DNA of 19,212 bases from Candidatus Diapherotrites archaeon CG08_land_8_20_14_0_20_30_16 (GCA_002779075.1 PEXK01000052.1:1-19212), one strand, 5' to 3'; counted from the first letter of the stretch, positions 1-19,212 are shown. Numbers and translations: made by a program. Notes: generated by a model from the letters alone, not told the origin.

Positions 1-3000
1 GTTGCAAACTGTGGATCTTTACTTGCCAGCCATTTAAAGAATTTTCCATAATCTCCTTTTGCTTTTGGAAGATTTGCTTGCAATTCTGCATGGCTTGATA
101 TTTCGAATCTCTGCATTGCTGATGCCATTTCTTCCTGCATACCAGTTATTGTATTTAATCTTGATGTATTAAATAAGCTCAAAATAAAAGCATCTTCAAC
201 TTCTTGTCTTACATCCCTTCCTGTTAATGCTCCTTTGTTTTCAAATAATTCTTTTGCTTTTTGCTCATCAGTTACCCCTGGCTGACTCTCTTTGTCATAA
301 TCATTAAATAAAGCACCAACAACAGGTATTTTTGCAAACCAATTATGCACGCCATCATACCAATGATCTCCAGAATCAATACCCAAAGCAACATTATTTC
401 TATGGTTTGCATACCAGCTTGTTAAACCTAAATCTACAGTTATAATACTACACTGTAAAGCAGCACCAGCCCATGCAAAGGGTCCCAAAAACTTTGCTTT
501 GCCAACAACCATTTCTGTTGCCATACATGCACCAAATCCTGCTACACTGGCTGCACCTATAGCAAGAGGCAGACCACTAGTAATATCACTTGCAAATGGT
601 TTCACATTATTTGAACTGCAAGTTGTATTTGGTGTTTTTCCAGAAATATAAATATTTTTGTTTTTCTCCTGTACCTCTTTCAATACTTCACAGCCATCTT
701 TTTGTATTTCTCCGCCTTCCCAATATACTTGTGCAAAGTATTGATTGTTTTTTAAACCAGAACCCAAAACACCAAAAATAAAATCTGCTGGTGGAACACC
801 ACAGGGTCTAAAGGATATTGATTCAACAAGGTCGTCACCAACAACAGGTCTGAAAACTAATTTCAGAGGATCTGCTTTATTGAAATTCTGTGCAACGCTG
901 GGATCACTAAAATCTATTTCTAAAATATATTCTTGTGGTCCACCCTTAAAAATACTGATATCTGAAACTTCATTATTCTGTTGATTAATAATTCTTGTTG
1001 TATATCCTTGTGGATTATCTGGTAATACAAATAGTTTTCCGCCACCGCCTACTGGTCCAATCAAACTAAACTTCACTGATTGCTTTCCAGATCCTGCAAG
1101 CACATCTTTTTTGCTTATTGATAATTTGTATGCTCCTTTCAAATCACTTGTTGATGAAACAAAATGTAATTTATCTTCTTCTTTTGTAATACAACCAATA
1201 AACCCTCCTTTAAGGGCTGCTTCAACAGAATTCAAAACATCTTGTCTTTTATCTGGTTTTGACACATCAATCTCTTTATTTACAGTGACAACAACCTGTG
1301 GATTTTCTTCTGCTTTCAATGAAATATCTAAAACCCTGTTTTCCAAACTTGCTCTTGTAAAAAATAATGTGTTTGATTTTCCTTGTGCTAATCTTTCTTG
1401 TGCAAAAAACTTTTTGCTGGCTTCTTTTGCTAATAAATCATAACCTACACCTACAAGACTTTTATCATAATCTGCATAACCTAGCAAAAATCCTGCAGTA
1501 TTATCAATTCCTGATTTACTATCTTTTGGCAAAAACAAAATTGCATTCTGAATTTCTGGTTTGCATTCAGGTGTATTTTCATAACCAGCTCTTGCAAGCA
1601 GACTAAATGAATCTTTTTGCATTGAACCATCACGTATCGCAAATGCGCCTTCCAATGTTATTGTGTACTTTCCGCATTTTGCAATAGACATATCAACAAA
1701 CAATTTATTGAACTGATATTCTGATTGTTCAACTAAATTAAAGCCCTGCAAAGGCAAAAGATTTACACTTTTTATTTGCGGAATACTTGCATTCAATACT
1801 TTTTCTAAATATTCTTCGCTTATTCTATCATGCATCAAATATAAAGTAAAGGGTGTGTATTCAATTCCTAATTTTTCAAAAGAACAGGATTTTGCTTCTG
1901 GTTTACAGCCTGTAGACTTTAAATCTTTTGTATATTTTGCACCTGCATTATTATACAATTCCAAATAACCCTTAATCTTTCCATGCAGATAATCTGATGC
2001 TGTCTGGCCATCACAATAAGCTGCCCCGCAATCAACAGAACTTGCAACTTTAGGAAATTTCACAGAAACTTTTGTATCGCTATCACAAACAGACATTTCT
2101 TTATCTAACGTTGGAAGGATATCTTTTCCTTTAGCAGTTCTTCCAAACTCAAATCTATAATTTACTGCTAATTCATAAATCTTATTTGTTTGAAGGCCTA
2201 TTGCTTTAAAAATAATTGGTTGTGTCCAACTCAATTCACTGCCTGCAAAAACAACTGATTTCAAAGTTAATGCTTGTTTAGGAAGGATTTGTTGGTTTCC
2301 TGCATTTTCTGCATTTTCTGCAGTTACTTCCAAACTGACTTTGTCCTTTATATTTTGCGATATGGGCAGATCCAATTTAATAGGTTCTGCACAATCATTC
2401 TGGATTGTCAGATTATCATTAGGTGGTAAGTAAACCTCTAACTTGCCAGAAATAAAAGATAATTCGCTTCCTGGAATAACTGCTTTAACACATTTGGGTG
2501 ATGAGATACTTAAAAATAATGGTATGCTTGCTTCTACAGGCTGGCTGTCAACAGAACTTACTCCTCTTACTAATATAGTATATGCAGTAATCACATTTGC
2601 TTTTTGTGTGTAAGGTGGTTGAATATATAACTGCGATAACCCTGTTTGATTTGGCATAATATATGGCAAAACTCTTGGATTTGGGCTGATGTTTACACGA
2701 ACATTTGTTTGGCTAGCCTGTGCAACACCTTGAGGCGTCCAATTATTGTATGGTGATAAACTGCTTTTATAATTTCCCCAAGGATCGTAAAGTGATTGTG
2801 TTTGCGGGCCATTCAAAAGAGGATTATAATACTCAGATGCAGGCACATCACTATAAGGGACGCCTGTTGTGAAAGGACTTGCATTATATGGCAAAAGCAT
2901 TACAGTTACATTTCTTAATGGTACACTTCCCAAATTGTTGATGAAAAGAGGCATAGTAACAATCTGATCTGCTGACAAAAATAATTGTGGATTTGGCACA

Positions 3001-6000
3001 GAAATATAAAGTTGCCCAAAGCTATGGATCAAATTTAAATGTAGGGGTAATTGTTTTATAAAATATCCTGTGTCTAAGTTCAGGAATAATTCTGCTTTGA
3101 TACTTTGTCCTTGTACAACCCCTCTTGATGTTAATGAAAATCTTAATGGTTTCTGTTCTCCTCTTTTCAAACTAATTGCACTTGCACTAAAATCAACACT
3201 TTGCGCAATTTCATTGAAGTCTCTAAAAACCAAAAATGGCGATAATTGCACAAAATCAAATTCACATTCATTTCTCAAATTCAATATGCCCTCAAATCTT
3301 TTGGCCTGCGTATCGTAAAGTGTTGCATTCAGTTCTGTAGGATCTGCAACCAAACAAGAGCTGTCTAATTCTGAATTTGCAATAAAAGATAAATGAATAA
3401 CCTGTCTTACAATTTCATTTCCATTTATTGTTCCACTTATTACTAAATCTTGATCGCCATATATTATTTGGTCGGTTTCAGTACTGACTGTTACTATTAA
3501 TTTAGTATCTGATTGTGGCAAAAGATTTGATTTCACAAATCTATAACTCACAACAAATGCTTTTGCATCGTCTCTTAAAACATCGCTACTTAATTTCAAA
3601 ACAGGATACTGCGAAATATTGCTTACAACAATTTCATAATCTCTTTGCTTTTTTCCTGGCGGAATCTTTATTTCATGTTCTGATTTTATACTCAAAACAC
3701 CAAATCTTGTAACAATAAAATTGCCTCTGACTGTGACATGTTGCTGTGCTCTAACTTCATAATTATAAACACCAGATGGCAATTCACTTATAACATATGT
3801 TCCATCCTTCCCTTTCTGTTGTGTATTATCTCCTTTCACTAAAACAGTTGCCAAACCTTTATCTTCTGTTACTGTGATAATAGCATTTGATATTTTTCCT
3901 TGCGTATCAGAAACATTGAATATTATTGGTTTCCCAAATTCAATATACCCATTACCATTCAAATTTACATTCAATGTTCTTTGGCCATCAATTCTAAAAT
4001 CAAAATTCTTTTGCAATCCAATAATTGGTGCAGTCATAGAAATTGTTGCAGTTCCTTGCTGCTTTGCATTAAAATACAACCTGAATTTTTTGTGTTCCCC
4101 TTTTTTCAAAACTAGACTGTAACTTAGAGATTCTAACTCTGTTTCTTTGGGATTGAAATTCATTAAATCCTCATCTAACCCATTAAGCACAATTGTTTTT
4201 AATAAATTATTTGCATTGAAATCAAGTCTTGTTGAAGCATCGCTAGGGCTGTAAAAATCAAAATCTATTGCATAAAATTCGTCAACAACTGCTGAAAATT
4301 CACTATATTTAGTAAAGCCATCAGTAAAAGAATAAGAATAACAAACGCTGGATACTGAAGAGCATTCAAACAAACTAGAAAATACTTCTATTTCTTCAGA
4401 ATATGTATTAGAATGCAACTTTTTTAATTTAGAATTCTGGACAGAAACATCTGATTTTGGATCTGTATGATAAGAATTTCCATCAAAAGAATCTGCCCTG
4501 TAATAAACATATAATTTGTTTAAATCCAAAGCATTAGAAACATTTACTTTCACTTTAAATTCTGTAAAGCCTTTAGGATTTTCATAAATAATGTTTGCCC
4601 ATTTATTTCTTATTCCAGATCTTCCAAACACCTGTAAATCTTTTACAAAACTCTCATCAGTATTTTCAGTATAATATAAACCATATTCTTTCTTTGTTCC
4701 TATTGAGTCTACTCCTAAAATTGCATACTGCATGGACTTTACTGGTTCATTTTCTTTGCCCAATCTAACATGTGCTTCACCTTTTGTTTGTCCTTTAGGC
4801 CAGATTAATGAAAACTTCAAATAATATGTGCCCCCTATTTTTACTCCATTTACTTTATTTGCGTAGGCATCATATATTCCTACAAAAGATATTTTAGGAT
4901 CTTTTGTAATATCTAATTCTGTTAAGAGGATTTCCATCTTTTCTGATACGTCCACTAATTTGGTGTATATGTTTCCTTTGCCATCAACAACAGTTACTTC
5001 AACTTCTTTTGCCCCATTAGACAAAAACTCTACTTTGCCTAATCCTGTATTTCCATCGAACAAAACAGAGGTTTCTGTTTTTATAGTCAACCCACCATTT
5101 TTCAGTGGCTGACCATTTGGTCCATAAATATATAATTTACTTGTTTTCTGTTTTGTTGTTAATGTTATTTCTATTTTATTATCTCCGCTCACTAAAAGTG
5201 CATCTTGTGTACCTTCTAAATCTTCTGTACTTATTGTCACCTGAATATTGTTGTTCGGTTCTAAAATAGTTGTAAATAATCCTGTAATTGCTGTTCTATT
5301 ATCAGGCAAATAAACAGGAAGATTCTTTTCTCCAATTATAGAAATATCCACGCTTGCATTTGCAATTGGCTTGTTATCTACATTGGCTGCAAAAATATTT
5401 ATTTTAGCCGCAGTTGAAAAATTTATCTTTTTAAGTATCAATATTATTGGAGGCAGGGTTTCAGAATCAACATACTGGGTAACAGGATAAAAATTTCCCA
5501 AAGCATAAGCAGATACATATGCTCCACGTTTTACATCAATGCCAGAAAACTCTACAACACCTAAAAAATCTGTTGTTTTCGTATCAATAATTAATCCATT
5601 TTCTGAATACAATGCTACTGTTGCTCCTGGAACATTCTGTTTTGTTTCGTCTCTCACAATAACACTAATTTTTGTTCCGCCTAAATCCAGATAAACATTA
5701 ATTCCCAAAGAATTTTGTCTGAGAGTTATATTTTTGTTTTTATCCTGCGAATCAAAAGTAATAAAATCTTCTTTTGAAACAACATATCTCAGTTCGATTC
5801 CTTTTTGAATGTTTATAGGCAATTTTCCTTGAGCATCAGTATAATCTTCAGCAATTAATTTTTTGTCACTAGAGTATAATTGCACTTTTACTTTTTCTAA
5901 AGGCAATCCATTAGCAGAAGTTACAGTGAAAGTTATTGTCCCTTTTTCTCCTGTTGCTATACTCTTAGGTTCTAAAATTAAATCAGTTATTTTTCCATTT

Positions 6001-6689
6001 GCAGGCACTTCAATAGTTTGAAAATCCAAATAGCCATCTTTATTAATTTTTATTGTTAATGGCCCCTGCAAAGAAATTCCTGACAATAAAACAATTCCTG
6101 AATCATCAGATTTTGTTGAAAATAAAAGCTCGCCATCAGAATAAACATTTACATCAGCACCAGGGATTATTGTTTGAAATTCTTTATCAACTAAACGCAG
6201 TTGCATACTTCCTATTTTTTCTTCTTTGGTAAAAGTAATTATTTTATACATTTTTTTACCAGAAACAATAATTTCCAGTGGCCCGACAAAAGTATAGCCT
6301 TCTAATTGTCCAATTACTTTCAAACTGTCTCCGTCTGAAACACCATTTAAAGTAATACTTTGCCCATCTGTAGTCAATTCATTATACAATTGGTCTTCGC
6401 CAAAACCAATTGTTAGAAGAACGTTATCTAATTTATTTTTTCCCATGTCTTCAAAATTTACCTGTAAAACAATACTTGATTTGAAAATCAAAAGTGAAAT
6501 CAGCACTATAACTATAATAATCAGAAGAATCAAAAATATAGAAAACCACATTGCAGGAATGCCGTGTCCTTCCAAAAAATTATTATATCTTTGAAGAGGT
6601 ATACCCTTTTCTGTTAAGAAATCGCTAAGGCCTTGGTATTTTTCCTGCAGTTTTGCATTTATTTTTGAAAAAAAGTTCCCTAAACCCAT
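1..6689 (-). CDS. Giant membrane-anchored surface protein, partial (>2,229 aa; the C-terminus lies beyond the left window edge), with tandem carboxypeptidase-regulatory/PEGA-like beta-sandwich repeats
   Basis: This ORF is absent from the ORF track because it has no stop inside the window. Manual reverse-complement translation starts at the ATG at 6689-6687, the first start after the in-frame TGA at 6725-6723. The frame stays open down to position 3; I spot-checked codon by codon at 1-60, 421-600, 1021-1080, 2401-2460, 3661-3720, 5401-5460 and 6121-6689. The track lists no complete minus-strand ORF in 1-7000, which agrees. The N-terminus is MGLGNFFSKINAKLQEKYQGLSDFLTEKGIPLQRYNNFLEGHGIPA, followed by the hydrophobic span MWFSIFLILLIIIVIVLISLLIF (a signal anchor). 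Repeated modules follow, such as MQLRLVDKEFQTIIPGADVNVYSDGELLFSTKSDDSGIVLL, ITFTVTSANGLPLEKVKVQLYSSDKKLIAEDYTDAQGKLPI and ISVIVRDETKQNVPGATVALYSENGLIIDTKTTDFLGVVEF. A Gly/Ala-rich hydrophobic stretch (GLPLAIGAASVAGFGACMATEMVVGKAKFLGPFAWAGAALQCSIITV) lies at about 430-600. Confidence 0.85.
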   Translation of the reverse strand, partial: MGLGNFFSKINAKLQEKYQGLSDFLTEKGIPLQRYNNFLEGHGIPAMWFSIFLILLIIIVIVLISLLIFKSSIVLQVNFEDMGKNKLDNVLLTIGFGEDQLYNELTTDGQSITLNGVSDGDSLKVIGQLEGYTFVGPLEIIVSGKKMYKIITFTKEEKIGSMQLRLVDKEFQTIIPGADVNVYSDGELLFSTKSDDSGIVLLSGISLQGPLTIKINKDGYLDFQTIEVPANGKITDLILEPKSIATGEKGTITFTVTSANGLPLEKVKVQLYSSDKKLIAEDYTDAQGKLPINIQKGIELRYVVSKEDFITFDSQDKNKNITLRQNSLGINVYLDLGGTKISVIVRDETKQNVPGATVALYSENGLIIDTKTTDFLGVVEFSGIDVKRGAYVSAYALGNFYPVTQYVDSETLPPIILILKKINFSTAAKINIFAANVDNKPIANASVDISIIGEKNLPVYLPDNRTAITGLFTTILEPNNNIQVTISTEDLEGTQDALLVSGDNKIEITLTTKQKTSKLYIYGPNGQPLKNGGLTIKTETSVLFDGNTGLGKVEFLSNGAKEVEVTVVDGKGNIYTKLVDVSEKMEILLTELDITKDPKISFVGIYDAYANKVNGVKIGGTYYLKFSLIWPKGQTKGEAHVRLGKENEPVKSMQYAILGVDSIGTKKEYGLYYTENTDESFVKDLQVFGRSGIRNKWANIIYENPKGFTEFKVKVNVSNALDLNKLYVYYRADSFDGNSYHTDPKSDVSVQNSKLKKLHSNTYSEEIEVFSSLFECSSVSSVCYSYSFTDGFTKYSEFSAVVDEFYAIDFDFYSPSDASTRLDFNANNLLKTIVLNGLDEDLMNFNPKETELESLSYSLVLKKGEHKKFRLYFNAKQQGTATISMTAPIIGLQKNFDFRIDGQRTLNVNLNGNGYIEFGKPIIFNVSDTQGKISNAIITVTEDKGLATVLVKGDNTQQKGKDGTYVISELPSGVYNYEVRAQQHVTVRGNFIVTRFGVLSIKSEHEIKIPPGKKQRDYEIVVSNISQYPVLKLSSDVLRDDAKAFVVSYRFVKSNLLPQSDTKLIVTVSTETDQIIYGDQDLVISGTINGNEIVRQVIHLSFIANSELDSSCLVADPTELNATLYDTQAKRFEGILNLRNECEFDFVQLSPFLVFRDFNEIAQSVDFSASAISLKRGEQKPLRFSLTSRGVVQGQSIKAELFLNLDTGYFIKQLPLHLNLIHSFGQLYISVPNPQLFLSADQIVTMPLFINNLGSVPLRNVTVMLLPYNASPFTTGVPYSDVPASEYYNPLLNGPQTQSLYDPWGNYKSSLSPYNNWTPQGVAQASQTNVRVNISPNPRVLPYIMPNQTGLSQLYIQPPYTQKANVITAYTILVRGVSSVDSQPVEASIPLFLSISSPKCVKAVIPGSELSFISGKLEVYLPPNDNLTIQNDCAEPIKLDLPISQNIKDKVSLEVTAENAENAGNQQILPKQALTLKSVVFAGSELSWTQPIIFKAIGLQTNKIYELAVNYRFEFGRTAKGKDILPTLDKEMSVCDSDTKVSVKFPKVASSVDCGAAYCDGQTASDYLHGKIKGYLELYNNAGAKYTKDLKSTGCKPEAKSCSFEKLGIEYTPFTLYLMHDRISEEYLEKVLNASIPQIKSVNLLPLQGFNLVEQSEYQFNKLFVDMSIAKCGKYTITLEGAFAIRDGSMQKDSFSLLARAGYENTPECKPEIQNAILFLPKDSKSGIDNTAGFLLGYADYDKSLVGVGYDLLAKEASKKFFAQERLAQGKSNTLFFTRASLENRVLDISLKAEENPQVVVTVNKEIDVSKPDKRQDVLNSVEAALKGGFIGCITKEEDKLHFVSSTSDLKGAYKLSISKKDVLAGSGKQSVKFSLIGPVGGGGKLFVLPDNPQGYTTRIINQQNNEVSDISIFKGGPQEYILEIDFSDPSVAQNFNKADPLKLVFRPVVGDDLVESISFRPCGVPPADFIFGVLGSGLKNNQYFAQVYWEGGEIQKDGCEVLKEVQEKNKNIYISGKTPNTTCSSNNVKPFASDITSGLPLAIGAASVAGFGACMATEMVVGKAKFLGPFAWAGAALQCSIITVDLGLTSWYANHRNNVALGIDSGDHWYDGVHNWFAKIPVVGALFNDYDKESQPGVTDEQKAKELFENKGALTGRDVRQEVEDAFILSLFNTSRLNTITGMQEEMASAMQRFEISSHAELQANLPKAKGDYGKFFKWLASKDPQFA

Positions 6690-6801: not shown

Positions 6802-7071
6802 TGTATATATATAAAGCTCTGTAGAAACCCAATTAAATATGTACAAATCAAACACCATATTAACATCTTTATGTCTGAGCAATAGGAAACAAATTTAGAA
6901 GTTATTGTTATTGCAAGAATATAAAATAACAAAAAGATAGACAATAAAAAAGACAGATCAAAATACAAGTAATTCTCAGATACAATATTTAAGAGTATAT
7001 AGTGTATAAGGATTAATAAAGATTACGATTAGTTCTAAAACAATAAAAGTAAAGTACTTGTATTTTTATCA

Positions 7072-8061
7072 TTATGGTTTGGTTGTCAGATTTATTGTAT
7101 TTAATTGCTTTTCTGGATTATAAACTCTCCAAAATATTGGACATCCACCAAAACAAAAATTAATTCTAGAACAAAGAGTGCATTCTTTTATTGGCCTGTG
7201 AGATATCTTTGCTCTAACCGAATTAAGTTCAGACCACATTTTTTCAAAATTGTTGTAGGAAATATTACTATTAATTTTTGCAATTGGAAAATCGACCCAA
7301 TGAGTGCAAGGCAAAATATTATTATTACTATCTATAACCAAACCACTTCCTGAAAAAATATGACAATTAAAATTATAGTGTTTTTTTAGATCATTTGGAA
7401 CTAAACAAGATGGAACAGGTGTAACAACCGAAAATGTCGCACCACTGTATTTTTTTATTAACCGTCTTAATAGGGGATTAAATTTCTTTGTGAATTCATC
7501 TGGCGAAAAAGTAATATTATTTTTTCTAAAGTTCGTAACTATATTATATCCAAAACGTTTAATTCCGAGATTGTATAGTTCATCTATTAATTTAGATAAA
7601 CTTGAAAAATTTGATTTGCTAATTGCTGTATTTGTGGATAATATCTTTATATTATAATTAAATACATTTTTTATTGCTTTTCTAATAAAATTATATGCTT
7701 GTTGGTTATCTACAATTATATTGTGTAAATCTTTTGGACCTTCAATCGAAATGGTTATGCCCTTTAATTTGGGCAGTATTGTTTTACACAAAGACTTTCT
7801 TGAAAAACCAAGACCATTTGTTACTACAAAAACATTGAAACCCCCATTATACAACATATTTACAATCTCTTCAAAATTAGGGTGTAATGTGGGCTCGCCG
7901 CCAATTAATATTATCTTTTTTGGTTTTATTTTATTAAATAAGTGAATAAAATTTCTTATGGTATCTAAGGTCATAATTCCTCCTCTTTTTTTATAATAAC
8001 AAAATTCACAATTATTATTGCATTGAGAAATTATTGTTAGCCACACAGTAGATATTGTCAT
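7072..8061 (-). CDS. Radical SAM enzyme with a C-terminal SPASM-type auxiliary Fe-S domain (putative peptide maturase)
   Basis: The CxxxCxxC motif is CNNNCEFC; its codons were verified at 8022-7999. A GGEP SAM-binding motif is present (ILIGGEPTLHP). The C-terminal region reads CHIFSGSGLVIDSNNNILPC ... ECTLCSRINFCFGGCP, which gives an exact Cx2Cx5Cx3C SPASM signature at about 7141-7365. The start is most likely the ATG at 8061, forming a TAATG overlap with the upstream stop. The track's TTG at 8067 is the alternative. Confidence 0.9.
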   Translation of the reverse strand: MTISTVWLTIISQCNNNCEFCYYKKRGGIMTLDTIRNFIHLFNKIKPKKIILIGGEPTLHPNFEEIVNMLYNGGFNVFVVTNGLGFSRKSLCKTILPKLKGITISIEGPKDLHNIIVDNQQAYNFIRKAIKNVFNYNIKILSTNTAISKSNFSSLSKLIDELYNLGIKRFGYNIVTNFRKNNITFSPDEFTKKFNPLLRRLIKKYSGATFSVVTPVPSCLVPNDLKKHYNFNCHIFSGSGLVIDSNNNILPCTHWVDFPIAKINSNISYNNFEKMWSELNSVRAKISHRPIKECTLCSRINFCFGGCPIFWRVYNPEKQLNTINLTTKP

Positions 8062-8750
8062 TAGCAATCCTCTTCAAAAAAATAAGTCCCATATATTCCC
8101 ATAATAAGAAAATCTTCTTCTTCAGACAATATCATTATTTTACTATAAAATTCGTTCTCGTGTTTTATGGGCGCTTTAAAAAGTGGCTTTGTTTTCAAAT
8201 AGAATTCTTTTATTTTATCAGAATAACATTTCTGCTTTGGCAAATACCCATATTTAATTTTAATAAGCATTTGCCTAAATTTAAAATCCACAAAAAAATA
8301 ATTGTATGGAATTAATGAGTAATCTATTGATTTTAATAAAACAAAATATTCCTGAGATCTACATTCACTAATATATGTTTCAAAAATATATTTATATGCA
8401 AGATAATCTGCCAAACAGGTCTTTAGATCTTTTGGGTATTTATTTTTATCAAAAAAGGCATCATAGATTTTTTCGCGTAACGAAAATATTGTTTTGTCTG
8501 CTTGTTTCATATACCTCAAATCTATTGCTTTTATTTTGTTTTTTAGTTGTGTATTATATTTGGCATTAACTTTTAATTTGTACTTTTTTCCTGATTCTTT
8601 TTCAATCTCAATTACTTCATGCAAAAGTATTTCTTTTCCTAAAAAAGATTCAAACATTTTTAAATAAGCCATTTTATTGATTTCATAAAAAAATTGTGAA
8701 AATGGCTTCCAATCAAATACCATAAAACTATTTATTTGAATTTCTCGCAT
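8061..8750 (-). CDS. Hypothetical protein (229 aa ORFan) in the rSAM operon
   Basis: This is a complete ORF. Its ATG (8750-8748) directly abuts the TAA of the upstream gene (TAAATG), and its own TAA overlaps the ATG of the rSAM gene by 1 nt. The protein is rich in Tyr, Phe and Lys and looks largely helical. I recognise no P-loop, ATP-grasp, HD or other catalytic motif. Confidence 0.7.
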   Translation of the reverse strand: MREIQINSFMVFDWKPFSQFFYEINKMAYLKMFESFLGKEILLHEVIEIEKESGKKYKLKVNAKYNTQLKNKIKAIDLRYMKQADKTIFSLREKIYDAFFDKNKYPKDLKTCLADYLAYKYIFETYISECRSQEYFVLLKSIDYSLIPYNYFFVDFKFRQMLIKIKYGYLPKQKCYSDKIKEFYLKTKPLFKAPIKHENEFYSKIMILSEEEDFLIMGIYGTYFFEEDC

Positions 8751-9086
8751 TTAAGAATCCTCTTTAACAACAAAATGTTTTTCATTTAAATCTATTGATA
8801 TGCTTGTGTTGGGTTTTAACATATCAAAAGAGTTAGTTCCTAAAATAACAGGTATTTTAAGTTCTCTGCTTATAATTAATGCATGACTCAAAATACTCCC
8901 ATTTTTAATAATTAGTAATTTATAATCCGAAACAAAAGGAATTCTATTCATTTGTAAAGTGGATAAAAACAATATTTTATTTTGTTTATTATCTTCAGTA
9001 TAATCTGGCTTTTCAAATTTTATAACTTGTCCAGAAATGTTGTTGTTTCCGTAAGACATGATATATTTAGCATTAAATTTAACCAA
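8751..9086 (-). CDS. Stand-alone PEP-utilising-enzyme mobile (swivelling phosphohistidine) domain protein, 111 aa
   Basis: The sequence ISGQVIKF...KILFLSTLQMNRIPFVSDYKLLIIKNGSILSHALIISRELKIPVILGTNSFDMLKPNTSISIDLNEKHFVV follows the PF00391-type pattern: G.xSHaaIvaRElgIPav.G, then ...v.vDg..g.v. The putative phospho-acceptor His is residue 68; its CAT codon was verified at 8885-8883. The TTG start at 9086 is preceded by GGTGAT (9096-9091) with a 4-nt spacer. The ATG at 9059 is an alternative start. Confidence 0.8.
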   Translation of the reverse strand: MVKFNAKYIMSYGNNNISGQVIKFEKPDYTEDNKQNKILFLSTLQMNRIPFVSDYKLLIIKNGSILSHALIISRELKIPVILGTNSFDMLKPNTSISIDLNEKHFVVKEDS

Positions 9087-9137: not shown

Positions 9138-9362
9138 TTATTTATCACCAATACAATCACTACTACAATCAGGATTGTCACCACAATCACAAACACAATC
9201 ACAATCTCCTGGCGATCCATCTCCTTCGTAACAATCTGCAGCCATAAAAACATCCGATTGCCCCTTTTTGGACTTTATTATTATTAAATCACCAGTCACA
9301 TTAGAATTTCCAAATTGGGTATTATATAAAAGATATTCTTCTCTTACAGTACAATCTAACAT
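9138..9362 (-). CDS. Small Cys/Asp-rich peptide (74 aa; 89 aa if started at 9407), candidate RiPP precursor
   Basis: The sequence is MLDCTVREEYLLYNTQFGNSNVTGDLIIIKSKKGQSDVFMAADCYEGDGSPGDCDCVCDCGDNPDCSSDCIGDK. The ATG at 9362 is preceded by GGAGGG (9373-9368) with a 5-nt spacer, the same style of SD-like motif seen before purA and proS. It is the first gene of a same-strand, tightly packed cluster ending in an rSAM/SPASM enzyme. The last 34 residues contain 7 Cys and 9 Asp; codons were checked one by one across 9141-9245. Confidence 0.7.
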   Translation of the reverse strand: MLDCTVREEYLLYNTQFGNSNVTGDLIIIKSKKGQSDVFMAADCYEGDGSPGDCDCVCDCGDNPDCSSDCIGDK

Positions 9363-9511
9363 ATTATCCCTCCAAAAATATAAAAACACTAGTCTTTGGC
9401 CAAACATTAAAACAAGATACTAAAGATTTACAAAAGAAATAATTCAAAATTAGCTTGGTCGTTTTCCTTCTAAGTAAGGTTAAAACCATATAAATATATT
9501 ACCTAGAAGAA

Positions 9512-9681: not shown

Positions 9682-11139
9682 TTATAAAAGGGGGGAGATT
9701 AATCTTGCCAAAGACTGCTTTAATTTTATCCATTTGCTCTGCTGAATAAGATCGCTTTTTGTAATTTCCTTACAATCTTTTAAGTCATTATAAAATATCT
9801 GTGTAAGTTTTTCAGTAGTATTTGTATCAAATATGAATGCGTTCACTTCGAAATCCAACTTTAGTCCACGAATATTCATATTTGTTGACCCTACTGATGA
9901 AATATTATCTGAAATTAACATTTTTGTATGCAAAACGCCATTCTTTCCTTTTGCATAACTATATACTTTTACTCCGACATCCAGCAACTCTGGAAGATAA
10001 GTCAAATTCACCAGCTTATACAAAGAAAGATCTGGATTTTCAGGTATTATCAATCTTGTGTCCACTCCTTTTAATGCCGTAGATTTTAATGCTAACAGCA
10101 CGCTATCATCAGGAATAAAATAAGGCGTCTCAATATACAATTTTTTTTCTGATGTTGTAATTATTGAGAAAAAAATTAGTTTTAAGTTTTCCCATTTTGT
10201 ATCTGGCCCAGAAGGCGCAATGTGTAAATTCACCTTTCCTTTAGTTTCTAACTTCGGATATAATTTATAATCATAAATATCCTGTTTTGTTGCAAAGAAC
10301 CAATCTCTCACAAAAATAGTTTGAAGCGAATAAACTGCGGGTCCATTTATTTTTAATTGAATATCTCTCCAAAAACCATATTTCCCACCATTAAAATATT
10401 CCTGCCCAATATTCATACCGCCTATAAATGCTGTTTGGCCATCAAATATTGCTATTTTTCTGTGATTTCTATGATTTAATTTGCTTTTTAAAATAGTTAA
10501 TCTCACAGGTAGAAAAACTCCTAATTCTATATTATTCTGTTTCAAAATGTGTTTATAATGTCTTATAAATTTTTGTGAGCCAAAGCCATCTAAAAGTATT
10601 CTAACTTTGATTCCGCATTTTGCTTTTTTTATCAAGCAATCTATTAATTTTTTTGTTATTTCATCATTTCTAAAAAGGTAAAATTCTAAATGAATGTGTT
10701 CTTTTGCTTTTTCTATTTCATCAAACAGACTAGGAAAAAATTCTGATCCGTTATTCAAAATTTCAACAGAATTATTCTTAGAAAAGGGATAATTTGTTGA
10801 ATGCAAAGCTAAATACATAGTATGTCTTTTTTCTTGCAGTTCTACAGGCAATTGTGCATTATGCAAAAATTCTTTTTGTGATTCAACAATTTTGGTTAAA
10901 ACATTTGCATATTTAGGTCTGCGCAATCTCCAAGAATAAAACTTTTGCTTTAGATTTTCTCCTGCCCAGAAATATGCTATTATTCCAAATATAGGAATAA
11001 AAACAAGCACCAAAATCCATGCAATAGTTTTATGCGGATCTCTATTTTCCAAAACAAGTACAACAATCAGATTTAACACATAAACAACAAATAAGGCTAT
11101 TAAAAGCCAAAAAAACCAAAGCATAATAGAAACACGCAA
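9682..11139 (-). CDS. cls: Cardiolipin synthase, PLD superfamily (ClsA-like)
   Basis: Two HxKx4D (HKD) motifs are present: HRKIAIFDGQTAFIGGMNIG and HTKMLISDNISSVGSTNMNIRG. The N-terminus has two hydrophobic helices and the ClsA-like segment ENRDPHKTIAWILVLVFIPIFGIIAYFWAG. The track start at 11139 is a TTG; the ATG at 11124 (MLWFFWLL...) is the more likely start. Confidence 0.9.
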   Translation of the reverse strand: MRVSIMLWFFWLLIALFVVYVLNLIVVLVLENRDPHKTIAWILVLVFIPIFGIIAYFWAGENLKQKFYSWRLRRPKYANVLTKIVESQKEFLHNAQLPVELQEKRHTMYLALHSTNYPFSKNNSVEILNNGSEFFPSLFDEIEKAKEHIHLEFYLFRNDEITKKLIDCLIKKAKCGIKVRILLDGFGSQKFIRHYKHILKQNNIELGVFLPVRLTILKSKLNHRNHRKIAIFDGQTAFIGGMNIGQEYFNGGKYGFWRDIQLKINGPAVYSLQTIFVRDWFFATKQDIYDYKLYPKLETKGKVNLHIAPSGPDTKWENLKLIFFSIITTSEKKLYIETPYFIPDDSVLLALKSTALKGVDTRLIIPENPDLSLYKLVNLTYLPELLDVGVKVYSYAKGKNGVLHTKMLISDNISSVGSTNMNIRGLKLDFEVNAFIFDTNTTEKLTQIFYNDLKDCKEITKSDLIQQSKWIKLKQSLARLISPLL

Positions 11140-11511: not shown

Positions 11512-13224
11512 ATGTTAGAGCAAATAAAGAAAGATTTAGAGAAACTAGACCCAAGCCTCATTATAACAAGTCTTGAAATATACGAAAGGAATATAAGACT
11601 GGGTTTTCCTGAGGAATTATCTTTGTTGGGCCTCTTTTTGCCATACCTTTCAGAAGAAAGAAAAGCTAAATTGGAAGATATTGCAAAAAAGTACATCCCT
11701 TCGGGGGAAGAAAAAATAGAAAATCTTATTTGCATAAAAGATATTGAATCATTAAATGATCCTATTTTAAAAGAAAATTACAAAAAAATGCCTAAAAAGA
11801 TATATGAAGTAGCATTTACAAAAATAACACATTTGGATTTAGCTTTAGCACTTTTGTCTGAAAAGGCAACAGAAATAAACAATAAAACATATTTTCCAAA
11901 CCAAAATACCTTTGTTGAGTTTTTAGAAAATGTTTATTGTCAATTGTGCCAGATTTTTGATATTTCCTATTATACTAATTTTTTGGATAATTTTGTTATA
12001 ATTAATAAATATCATGAAGAATACAAAAAAGTTCTAGAAATAACAAAACAAAATCTGACTAGAAGCAAAGATGAAATTTATTATATAATATCAGAATTAA
12101 AAAAGTTTCAAAAATATCCTAATGAAATTTTCAAAGGCAGATTAAAAACACCTGCAAGCGTTTTTAAGAAAGTTTATGTTAGAAAAGAACCTGTAGAAAA
12201 CATTGTTGATTTTGTAGCAATAAGAATTGTTACCAATACAATAAGCGATTGTTACTCTTGGTTAGGATACATTTATTCTCTGTGGCCTCCAAGGCTTTCA
12301 AAATTTATGGATTATATTGAACATCCAAAACCCACTGGTTACAAATCTTTACATATTGTTGTAGACACAAAATTTGGGCCTGTTGAATTTCAAATACGAA
12401 CTCATAATATGCATAGATTTGCAGAATTTGGTTTAGCAGCACATTGGAAATACAAAATAAAAAACGAAAATAAAATGTTAGAAAAAATAAAATCTAGACT
12501 CGCTACACAAAACCCCTATTTTGATCAGGGCCACATTTTTGTATACACCCCAAAAAAGGACATAATAATATTAGATAAGGGTTCTTGTATTGTTGATTTT
12601 GCGTATGCAATTCACACAGATCTTGGCGACCATTTATTTTCTGCAGAAGTCAACAATAAAATTGCACCTTTGAACTATAAGTTAAAAGATAAAGACATAA
12701 TAATGGTTCATGCAGATTCAAAAAAGAAACCAAATAAAAATTGGCTTGAGTTTGTTGTCTCAAATAAAACAAAGGAAAAAATATCTCAAAGTTTAAAAAT
12801 TATAAAAATTAATAAAAAAATAAAATTGCTAAATCCAACTCTTTTTTTTAAAGAGAAGGTGCAAGTTGCACAATGTTGCAATCCTTTTTGTGATGATGAT
12901 GTAGGAATATACAAAAGCACAAAAAGAAAATTAATCCTGCATAAAGCGTCTTGTCTAGAAAAAAACCATTTGAAATATTCTTATGCTTCGGATGCTTTAA
13001 AAACCCTTTTTTTAATAAATAAAAGAATTAAAATACAACTATCTTCAGATTCCAATCTGCTTATTGAACAATTAAAAACAAAATTTGTAATGGAAGATCC
13101 AGAAATAAACAAAAAGAGGAATACAATAACATTCAACACAAAACTAGCACACAAAGAGGATTTTACAAAATTCAAAGAAGAATTATTAGAAGAAGAGTTT
13201 GTTGAAAGCGTTGAATTGGTTTGA
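11512..13224 (+). CDS. Long RelA/SpoT homologue (RSH), putative (p)ppGpp synthetase: divergent N-terminus, then SYNTH, TGS, Cys zinc-finger (ZFD) and ACT-like domains
   Basis: The synthetase motifs are GRLKTPASVFKK, DFVAIRIV, DYIEHPKPTGYKSLH, EFQIRT and HRFAEFGLAAHWKYK (about 12133-12456). The TGS domain is IFVYTPKKDIIILDKGSCIVDFAYAIHTDLGDHLFSAEVNNKIAPLNYKLKDKDIIMV (about 12532-12711). The post-TGS segment is PNKNWLEFVVSNKTKEKISQSL. The ZFD is VAQCCNPFCDDDVGIYKSTKRKLILHKASC. I could not find an HD hydrolase His-Asp motif in residues 1-200. GGGTG lies 9 nt upstream of the ATG. Confidence 0.85.
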   Translation: MLEQIKKDLEKLDPSLIITSLEIYERNIRLGFPEELSLLGLFLPYLSEERKAKLEDIAKKYIPSGEEKIENLICIKDIESLNDPILKENYKKMPKKIYEVAFTKITHLDLALALLSEKATEINNKTYFPNQNTFVEFLENVYCQLCQIFDISYYTNFLDNFVIINKYHEEYKKVLEITKQNLTRSKDEIYYIISELKKFQKYPNEIFKGRLKTPASVFKKVYVRKEPVENIVDFVAIRIVTNTISDCYSWLGYIYSLWPPRLSKFMDYIEHPKPTGYKSLHIVVDTKFGPVEFQIRTHNMHRFAEFGLAAHWKYKIKNENKMLEKIKSRLATQNPYFDQGHIFVYTPKKDIIILDKGSCIVDFAYAIHTDLGDHLFSAEVNNKIAPLNYKLKDKDIIMVHADSKKKPNKNWLEFVVSNKTKEKISQSLKIIKINKKIKLLNPTLFFKEKVQVAQCCNPFCDDDVGIYKSTKRKLILHKASCLEKNHLKYSYASDALKTLFLINKRIKIQLSSDSNLLIEQLKTKFVMEDPEINKKRNTITFNTKLAHKEDFTKFKEELLEEEFVESVELV

Positions 13225-18157: not shown

Positions 18158-18215
18158 TAACACATCAAATAGAACAATTTTATGTGTAGAGCATATTTAA
18201 TGCATAATGGGGGGT

Positions 18216-19212
18216 ATGAAAATGCAAACAGAACAAAATCAATTTTTATCAGAAGGTACAAAAAGAATTAAAGGAAGAGAAGCACAAAGAATCAATATTT
18301 TGATTGGCAAAGCGGTAGCACAAGCTGTTCGCTCTACTCTCGGTCCTAAAGGAATGGACAAAATGATTGTTGACGAGCTTGGAGATGTTACTATTAGCAA
18401 TGATGGTGCAACTATTTTGAAGGAAATGGCTATTGATCATCCAGTTGGAAAAATGTTAGTGAATTTAGCAAAGAATCAAGACTCTGAAGTTGGAGATGGT
18501 ACAACAACTGCTGTTGTTATTGTTGGATCTTTGCTAGAAGAAGCAGAAATCCTTTTGGATAATGGAATACACCCATCAAATATTATCAATGGTTATAGAT
18601 TAGCTGGCGAAAAAGCAAAGGATATTTATGAGTCAATTTCATCAAAAATAAATTCCGATAAAAGAGAGGATTTACACAATATTGCTCTTACTGCTCTTAC
18701 GGGAAAGGCTGCAGAATATTGTGAAAAATTAGCAGATTTAAGTGTTAATGCTATATTGTCAGTTACAGAAAAAAACGAAAACGGGAAAACAATAATTGAT
18801 ATTGATAATATAAAAATTGAAAAAAAGGAAGGGCAATCTTTAGAAGACTCAGAGTTAGTTAAAGGGATAGTTTTGGATAAAGAAAGAGTAAGCACTAACA
18901 TGCCTACTTTAATCAATAACGCAAAAGTAGCATTATTAGATGTTGCTTTGGAAATAAAGGGCCCGGAAACTGATACTAAAGTACAAATAAATTCTCCTGA
19001 CCAATTGCAGGCATTTATTGACCAAGAAGAAACAATGATAAAAGAAAAAGTAGACATTATCAAAAAATCTGGTGCTAATGTTGTATTCTGCCAGAAAGGT
19101 ATTGATGATTTAGCACAACACTTTTTAGCAAAATCAAATATTTTGGCTTGCCGTAGAGTTAAAAAATCAGACTTGGAAAAATTAGCAAAAGCAACAGGTG
19201 CTGAAATTGTTT
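18216..19212 (+). CDS. ths: Thermosome subunit (group II chaperonin), partial; the 3' end lies beyond the right window edge
   Basis: This ORF is absent from the track because it is open to the window end. Manual translation gives [111 protein letters not shown]...[44 protein letters not shown]. The hallmark GPKGMDKM and GDGTTT motifs are present. In-frame alternative starts exist at 18207 and 18222. A GGGGGG run at 18209-18214 sits immediately upstream. Confidence 0.92.

Follow-up and report, generated by a model that had tools for sequence, protein, structure and literature searches.

The window, the whole stretch of DNA analysed here, comprises the 19,212 nucleotides of a contig from Candidatus Diapherotrites archaeon CG08_land_8_20_14_0_20_30_16 (GCA_002779075.1, PEXK01000052.1:1-19212). 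Four tightly packed genes on its minus strand encode, in this order, a putative precursor peptide, a swivel protein of the phosphoenolpyruvate (PEP)-utilising type, a partner protein and a radical S-adenosylmethionine (rSAM) enzyme with a SPASM motif. The rSAM enzyme lacks the RiPP recognition element (RRE; RiPPs are peptides made by the ribosome and modified after translation). The free-standing swivel protein is the subject of this analysis. The features of the locus are as follows.

9138-9362, minus strand: putative precursor peptide gene; 74 amino acids from the ATG at 9362, or 89 amino acids if the start is at 9407
8751-9086, minus strand: gene for the free-standing PF00391 swivel protein; 111 amino acids, identified by profile, predicted fold and stand-alone family
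8883-8885, minus strand: CAT codon of His68, the predicted phospho-acceptor/donor, which aligns with PEP synthase's catalytic histidine and with that of the TSH motif in the pyruvate kinase C-domain
8061-8750, minus strand: partner gene, called an ORFan in an earlier note; 229 amino acids, aligned in 6 sequences from 5 lineages
7072-8067, minus strand: radical SAM/SPASM gene without RRE; 331 amino acids, PF04055 at 64 bits

The ATG of the partner gene follows directly behind the TAA of the swivel gene with zero spacer (TAA-ATG), and the likely ATG of the rSAM gene at 8061 overlaps the stop codon of the partner gene (TAATG). The swivel gene starts with TTG, with GGTGAT and 4 nucleotides upstream. 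This start is supported because an F-x-A-K-Y block aligns with the N-termini of homologues that start with ATG.

The 111-amino-acid protein is a complete swivel domain that carries the signature GSILSHALIISRELKIPVILGT with His68, and there is nothing else in the polypeptide. The first-pass annotation, made from the sequence alone, had described it in this way, and profile, model and sequence confirm the description. It belongs to PF00391 by score, predicted fold and catalytic histidine, as had also been proposed. The Pfam score is 35.1 bits (E=1e-8) and exceeds the gathering score of 23.1 bits, and the match spans residues 35-100 and profile positions 3-69 of 72. Local matches in NCBIfam are confined to swivel regions, namely those of PEP synthase, PRK06241-type PEP synthase-like proteins, the pyruvate kinase C-terminal domain, DhaM, PigC/RedH and enzyme I (EI).

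The AlphaFold2 model of the swivel protein, a prediction built with eight homologues rather than a solved structure, has a predicted local distance difference test score (pLDDT) of 84.7 and a predicted template modelling score (pTM) of 0.80, and places His68 at the N-terminus, in the first turn, of helix 68-76. The best Foldseek match of this model is the His domain of rifampin phosphotransferase (RPH), with a template modelling score of 0.71 and a root mean square deviation of 2.6 Å over 100 columns, and further top matches are the pyruvate kinase C-domain, the N-terminal part of EI (EI-N) and PPDK. In profile alignments to 9dae, 8a8e and 2e28, the column of His68 falls on the histidine of their TSH motif.

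When 1.84 billion representative proteins were searched exhaustively with HMMER, 395 matches at E<=0.001 were obtained. Most of these are long proteins of the type found in the Candidate Phyla Radiation (CPR) and DPANN with 2-6 swivel domains. The top-ranking matches include seven proteins that are only 104-110 amino acids long and align over their full length with 33-41% identity to the window protein, and a profile search added two more stand-alone homologues. Overall, the stand-alone homologues are 25-41% identical to the window swivel protein. His68 is invariant in both alignments of these homologues, in which no more than 8-9 columns in total are invariant, and the surrounding loop and helix are also conserved. 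A maximum-likelihood tree was built from 267 swivel domains, which are short and were excised with a profile built from the stand-alone family itself; in this tree the eleven stand-alone sequences (104-111 amino acids) form an exclusive clade with support 0.995. The exclusive clade marks the protein as a dedicated component rather than debris. The conservation of His68 among orthologues, on which the first-pass annotation had relied, is thus borne out, and the orthologues are free-standing proteins with a clade of their own and not pieces of PpsA or PPDK.

Genomic context is visible in five distinct lineages, all of them metagenomic: the window, L004-L007 (JGI Ga0172374 and relatives), L008/L046/L050, L048 and L049. 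In all five, the partner gene lies directly downstream of the swivel gene, either adjoining or overlapping it, and the combination of a free swivel (the 107-amino-acid family) with this partner is referred to here as the type-A cassette. On contigs of sufficient length, the pair has a peptide with an Asp-Cys-rich tail before it (in 4 lineages) and, 3' of it, an rSAM/SPASM gene without RRE (in 3 lineages). The swivel gene had been described as lying between a precursor peptide and an ORFan. The flanking genes are as described, whereas the term ORFan does not hold, since the partner belongs to a conserved family whose gene adjoins the swivel gene in every case.

The distribution of the cassette is sporadic. 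A search with the rSAM protein in the GTDB representative genomes rendered only distant rSAM proteins (<=38% identity) without swivel neighbours, and the partner family was found in 0 of 213 other genomes of the same phylum. The cassette (7000-9000) has the lowest GC content of the window, 0.245-0.27 compared with 0.29-0.36 in the flanks, and on other contigs it is found beside ParE/RHH and Bro-N genes. Taken together, the low GC content, the lack of the partner gene in the 213 genomes and these neighbours suggest horizontal movement.

In L008 (6953-7906) and L050 (10627-11580), which are two independent assemblies, the rSAM/SPASM gene is called in two pieces of 188 and 96 amino acids. A frameshift or a decaying maturase gene may lie behind this, in cassettes whose genes for peptide, swivel and partner are intact. 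A convergent fragment of a swivel gene is found at the end of L008, and both contigs stop at the same place.

The 229-amino-acid partner protein has homologues of about 215-229 amino acids with 22-28% identity (6 sequences from 5 lineages), all of which came from contigs reached via the swivel protein; a word-based search for partner homologues found nothing. The residues F9, F21, K82 and R92 are invariant, and the family shares a YL(S/A)YKY block and a C-terminal acidic cluster, SEEED(Y/F). Judged from these residues, K82, R92 and the acidic cluster would be compatible with handling of phosphate and Mg2+. No significant match to the partner was found in Pfam, NCBIfam, PADLOC or PHROGs, the best in Pfam being EIIA of the phosphotransferase system (PTS) at a non-significant E=0.17, and a profile search gave 0 PDB matches at E<=10. 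No P-loop, ATP-grasp or kinase signature was found in the protein. The AlphaFold2 model is mostly helical with a small sheet (pLDDT 60, pTM 0.66), and the lack of any Foldseek match at E<=0.001 (best E=1.4) is weak evidence with a model of this moderate to low confidence.

Two possible relationships of the partner were rejected. It is not a divergent copy of the N-terminal helical domain of a second swivel protein in the same genome, encoded on contig C21 (BLASTP E=1.4, hhalign probability 0.15 against a 238-sequence profile of the helical domain, for which the C21 protein itself scores 96.8). Nor is it homologous to the 274/278-amino-acid protein of the type-B pair described below (hhalign probability 0.14). 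The earlier suggestion that the partner is a divergent donor or acceptor module is therefore unproven: it showed no relation to ATP-grasp, PPDK_N, the CPR/DPANN helical domain or the substrate domain of RPH and HpeH, the last by sequence as well as by fold.

The ATG at 9362, from which the precursor peptide has 74 amino acids, agrees with the starts of its homologues. The tail of the precursor peptide is rich in Asp and Cys, with 7 Cys and many Asp (DCYEGDGSPGDCDCVCDCGDNPDCSSDCIGDK). Peptides with Asp-Cys repeat tails are found at the same position in L005, L008, L046 and L015/L016, and in L048 the tail is a shorter Cys/Asp sequence. The peptides have a leader motif in common, Y-x-(V/T)-(N/Q)-(F/L)-x-N-x-x-(L/V)-x-G. 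In the window, a segment of the leader, YNTQFGNSNVTGDLI (9260-9320), resembles the N-terminal hairpin of the swivel protein, YIMSYGNNNISGQVI (9020-9065), and only 2 of 2000 shuffled sequences score as high. In the other cassettes the resemblance is at chance level (589/2000 in L005, 1063/2000 in L008 and 932/2000 in L048). Mimicry of the hairpin by the leader was thus rejected as a feature of the family, and because it is not reproduced in these three cassettes the resemblance is probably local chance or specific to the lineage.

The rSAM enzyme has the motif CNNNCEFC at residues 16-23 and a C-terminal SPASM motif, CTLCSRINFCFGGC (CX2CX5CX3C). It has no N-terminal RRE, because the CX3CX2C motif starts at residue 16 and leaves no room for an RRE of 86 amino acids. 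Orthologues in L004 and L015/L016 are 47-54% identical. The best NCBIfam match is PapB (NF047865) with 76.5 bits, far under the cut-off of 340. The core of the enzyme matches models of prokaryotic viperins (PADLOC pVip 81.7 bits; NCBIfam 65 bits, below the cut-off of 180) to much the same degree as PapB. An identity as anti-phage viperin was set aside since only the generic rSAM core is matched and both a SPASM motif and a cognate peptide are present. The same two features argue for a peptide maturase, although its placement in a family is loose.

A phosphohistidine carrier would need a source of phosphate, and the statement in the first-pass annotation that there is no kinase or PEP-binding domain in cis holds for the window and for the four other type-A lineages: neither a PPDK_N/ATP-grasp nor a PEP-utilizers_C domain was found in the window or in the cassettes L004, L008, L046, L048 and L049. 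The genome (748 kb, 81% complete) contains exactly three swivel domains, which are those of the window protein, of PpsA on contig C55 and of the protein on contig C21; the latter two score 94-97 bits compared with 35.1 for the window protein. PPDK_N and PEP-utilizers_C are each found once in the genome, in PpsA. Since the genome is incomplete, an ATP-grasp gene for the carrier could lie in the missing part of about 19%.

The ppsA gene (C55:22561-26442, minus strand) is one open frame of 1294 codons in which PPDK_N is matched in two pieces, at profile positions 2-118 and 116-325. The two pieces are separated by about 520 codons, and the insert ends with ...ITHN|SASFAGQ, which is typical of an intein, here a putative one within the conserved ATP-grasp motif. 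The third swivel protein (C21:3717-4793, plus strand) has 359 amino acids, with a helical domain of about 270 amino acids, a canonical swivel (90 bits) and no ATP-grasp. Its family (CPR/DPANN, hhalign probability 96.8) includes proteins of 1400-2650 amino acids with one PPDK_N and 3-6 modules of helical domain and swivel (P0002-P0008).

A kinase is found in a related cassette. L015/L016 encode an rSAM enzyme that is 54% identical to that of the window and equally without RRE, and a peptide (MNYILYNVNLYNKNLSG...CDCDCTFDCDCAIDCDC...) with the same leader motif and an Asp-Cys tail. The type-A pair is absent from this sister cassette. Behind the rSAM gene there are instead genes for a 274-amino-acid protein without family match, a free swivel of 96 amino acids and a protein with PPDK_N (120 bits) and a swivel domain, the gene of which is cut by the contig end in L015. 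The first two of these constitute a second kind of pair, located as follows.

L015:1331-3602 and L004:6744-7868: type-B pair; a protein of 274-284 amino acids followed by a free swivel of 93-96 amino acids

The larger type-B protein has conserved blocks (YPIFRG.GF, FYKEY and TGH...GVLE.Y.Y.G) but no family match. The 93- and 96-amino-acid swivels of the type-B pairs are found in the next-larger clade around the 107-amino-acid family (support 0.898), and L004/L006 carry both types of pair. An ATP-grasp component encoded together with a swivel component was found only in L015. The arrangements in L015/L016 and L004/L006 show that dikinase hardware is recurrently attached to this family of peptides and rSAM enzymes, and the PPDK_N-swivel kinase in the sister cassette favours real phosphotransfer chemistry in the peptide family.

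The interpretation put forward here, with a probability of roughly one half, is that the 111-amino-acid protein is a working phosphohistidine carrier which together with its partner constitutes a two-protein phosphotransfer module for maturation of the Asp-Cys-rich peptide. Such a module would be a dikinase of the PEP synthase/rifampin phosphotransferase kind, split one step beyond the known two-component enzymes. Support comes from features that are directly observed, namely the invariant histidine in a swivel fold, the dedicated clade, the obligatory pairing with the partner in an operon with peptide and rSAM genes, and the related cassette that bears an ATP-grasp kinase, and also from the precedent of split dikinases. 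HpeHI, CreHI and PpsAB have a separate ATP-grasp subunit that joins only a transient complex; their histidine is essential, and the swivel-bearing subunit alone moves phosphate between substrates (PMC12167813). The conservation of an exposed histidine would also speak for a carrier, as a pure scaffold would not be expected to fix such a residue.

We infer a course of three steps. His68 would be phosphorylated by a donor outside the operon, for which the candidates are the genomic PpsA, a gene in the missing part of the genome or the partner itself, supplied by some other donor. The charged carrier would then dock on the partner, which would bind the precursor peptide and hand the phosphoryl group over to it. 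On the peptide, the group might be taken up by an Asp carboxylate, by a Cys thiol or by a backbone oxygen beside Cys. Finally, the rSAM/SPASM enzyme would form thioether links of the Cys-to-Asp type. The more specific proposal, that swivel and partner are a peptide-directed phosphotransferase, with the first carrier of PEP-synthase type in ribosomal peptide maturation and the partner as an acceptor site with a new fold, is tentative. If true, activation before or after cross-linking by the rSAM enzyme would fall on Asp carboxylates, on Cys thiols or on the backbone adjacent to Cys in the Asp-Cys repeats, and the product would bear a modification not known from ranthipeptides.

Several observations weigh against a carrier function. 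None of the five type-A cassettes has an ATP-grasp, PPDK_N or PEP-binding domain, and only the housekeeping PpsA offers such domains in the genome. The swivel domain of PpsA is normally charged within its own chain. There are also swivel-like domains without a proven role in transfer, such as the C-terminal domain of pyruvate kinase, and this domain is among the best structural matches of the swivel model. In the searches described above the partner resembled none of the known donor or acceptor domains, and its model has a pLDDT of only 60. There is no conserved Ser, Thr or Tyr across the peptide tails, and the usual hydroxyl acceptor is therefore missing. Furthermore, the swivel loop of dikinases is T/SxxGGxxxH (PMC12167813). 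The window protein has I-K-N-G-S-I-L-S-H at this position, with G-S for G-G, and the T/S is V or I in all members of the family. The consensus of the family is (V/I)-K-x-G-G-(I/L)-L-x-H, so that the glycine pair is mostly retained. Compared with the GGxT(S/C)H loop of PpsA, PPDK and EI, the residues T(-8)/D(-7) and Thr(-2) are replaced in the family by V/I, K and L.

An unlikely but reasonable alternative is that swivel and partner are a non-catalytic adaptor that replaces the RRE, binds the leader and presents the peptide to the rSAM enzyme, with His68 kept for structure or binding. In PapB the RRE spans residues 1-86, whereas in some systems it is a protein with a gene of its own (PMC12715619). 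Because the rSAM enzyme has no RRE and RREs in trans occur elsewhere, an adaptor is reasonable a priori. The tight gene packing without spacer suggests a complex, and in the window the leader resembles the swivel hairpin. This resemblance is at chance level in the three other cassettes, however, and in the sister cassette L015/L016 the leader motif is retained and the rSAM enzyme likewise has no RRE, yet the type-A pair is missing. The leader-binding scaffold considered in the first-pass annotation is weakened by both observations. An adaptor does not readily account for the invariance of His68 and the conservation of the surrounding loop and helix. Neither protein matches families of the RRE/PqqD type or winged-helix folds in Pfam, NCBIfam or Foldseek, where the Foldseek result for the partner is weak evidence in view of its low-confidence model.

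It is also conceivable, but rather improbable, that the partner is itself a new kind of phosphoryl donor, with ATP, PEP, polyphosphate or acetyl phosphate as the source from which it charges His68, and that the swivel would then deliver the phosphate to the peptide bound by the rSAM enzyme or to another protein. This would fit the lack of a known donor domain in all type-A cassettes, the constant presence of the partner and its conserved acidic cluster and Lys/Arg residues. The order of swivel and then partner is moreover the reverse of that in HpeH, RPH and the type-B pair, where the substrate domain comes before the swivel. On the other hand, signatures of a P-loop, an ATP-grasp or a kinase are absent from the partner, Pfam, NCBIfam and PDB gave no match for it, the EIIA hit being non-significant, and the confidence of its model is too low to reveal a nucleotide pocket. 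A remnant or chance reading frame, such as a fragment of PpsA/PPDK type without function of its own, might be suspected from the small size of the protein, the AT-rich region (24-27% GC), the TTG start and a Pfam score that is modest beside the other two swivel domains of the genome. This is effectively excluded by the sequence comparisons, since the domain is complete with no strand missing and a confident model, and since full-length stand-alone homologues with conserved gene order and invariant histidine are found in at least five independent metagenomic lineages and form an exclusive clade.

The carrier interpretation can be compared with several known systems. In HpeHI, CreHI and PpsAB (phenylphosphate synthase) as well as in RPH, a swivel with an essential histidine takes the beta-phosphate of ATP from one site to a second, separate one. 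The first three are split into separately encoded parts (PMC12167813), whereas RPH is a single chain. The statement in the first-pass annotation that the domain is always embedded between other domains is thus too strong, although none of these enzymes is known to be split to a bare swivel domain. In all four the swivel is fused to a substrate-binding domain of about 450 amino acids, unlike the bare window protein, and in the two-component enzymes the ATP-grasp subunit is encoded alongside, while there is none in the window operon. Lacking both a fused substrate domain and an adjacent ATP-grasp, the swivel protein falls outside the defined family of two-component dikinases, though it probably works in the same way. 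The contexts differ as well: dikinases are found in aromatic catabolism and drug resistance, and the window protein in a cassette for a ribosomal peptide with a radical SAM enzyme.

PpsA, PPDK and EI share the PF00391 domain, and their catalytic histidine aligns with His68, but the window protein lacks PPDK_N and the TIM barrel of PEP-utilizers_C. The nearest sequence relatives of the window swivel are the CPR/DPANN proteins with helical domain and swivel (29-36% identity). In these, every swivel is fused behind a helical domain of about 250 amino acids, in contrast to the free window swivel with its unrelated partner. On the peptide side, the closest system is PapA/PapB of freyrasin, a ranthipeptide with Cys-Asp thioethers, in that PapB is the best NCBIfam match of the rSAM enzyme and that Cys and Asp, the residues joined by PapB, abound in the peptide tail. 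The low score relative to the NCBIfam cut-off and the lack of the RRE that PapB has at its N-terminus (PMC12715619) set the window enzyme apart. PapAB as characterised has no phosphotransfer component, unlike the window operon.

A search of the accessible literature found no paper that links RiPPs with PEP-utiliser/swivel or PPDK domains. To our knowledge, the settings in which swivel domains occur are central metabolism, the uptake of sugars, resistance to drugs and the catabolism of aromatic compounds, always attached to at least one substrate domain, and the secondary metabolism of DPANN is, as far as we know, almost uncharted. What is new may be a dikinase reduced to a free carrier and put to use in the maturation of a peptide, and more so if the partner has a new catalytic fold. 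With a detached carrier in an operon for a peptide and a radical SAM enzyme, the dikinase mechanism would reach into ribosomal peptide natural products. Such a carrier would also define a new family of partner proteins and give DPANN archaea a biosynthetic system of four small genes. It also raises the question of how the carrier is charged without an adjacent kinase domain.

The genes around the cassette are of various kinds. At 3-6689 the window encodes a protein of more than 2229 amino acids with repeats of CarboxypepD_reg, Big_1 and MG3 type, and the cassette of L004 is likewise followed by a surface-type repeat protein of 985 amino acids. On the other side of the window cassette there are a cardiolipin synthase of ClsA type with two PLD domains (9682-11139), a long RelA/SpoT-TGS protein (11512-13224) and a thermosome subunit (18207-19211).
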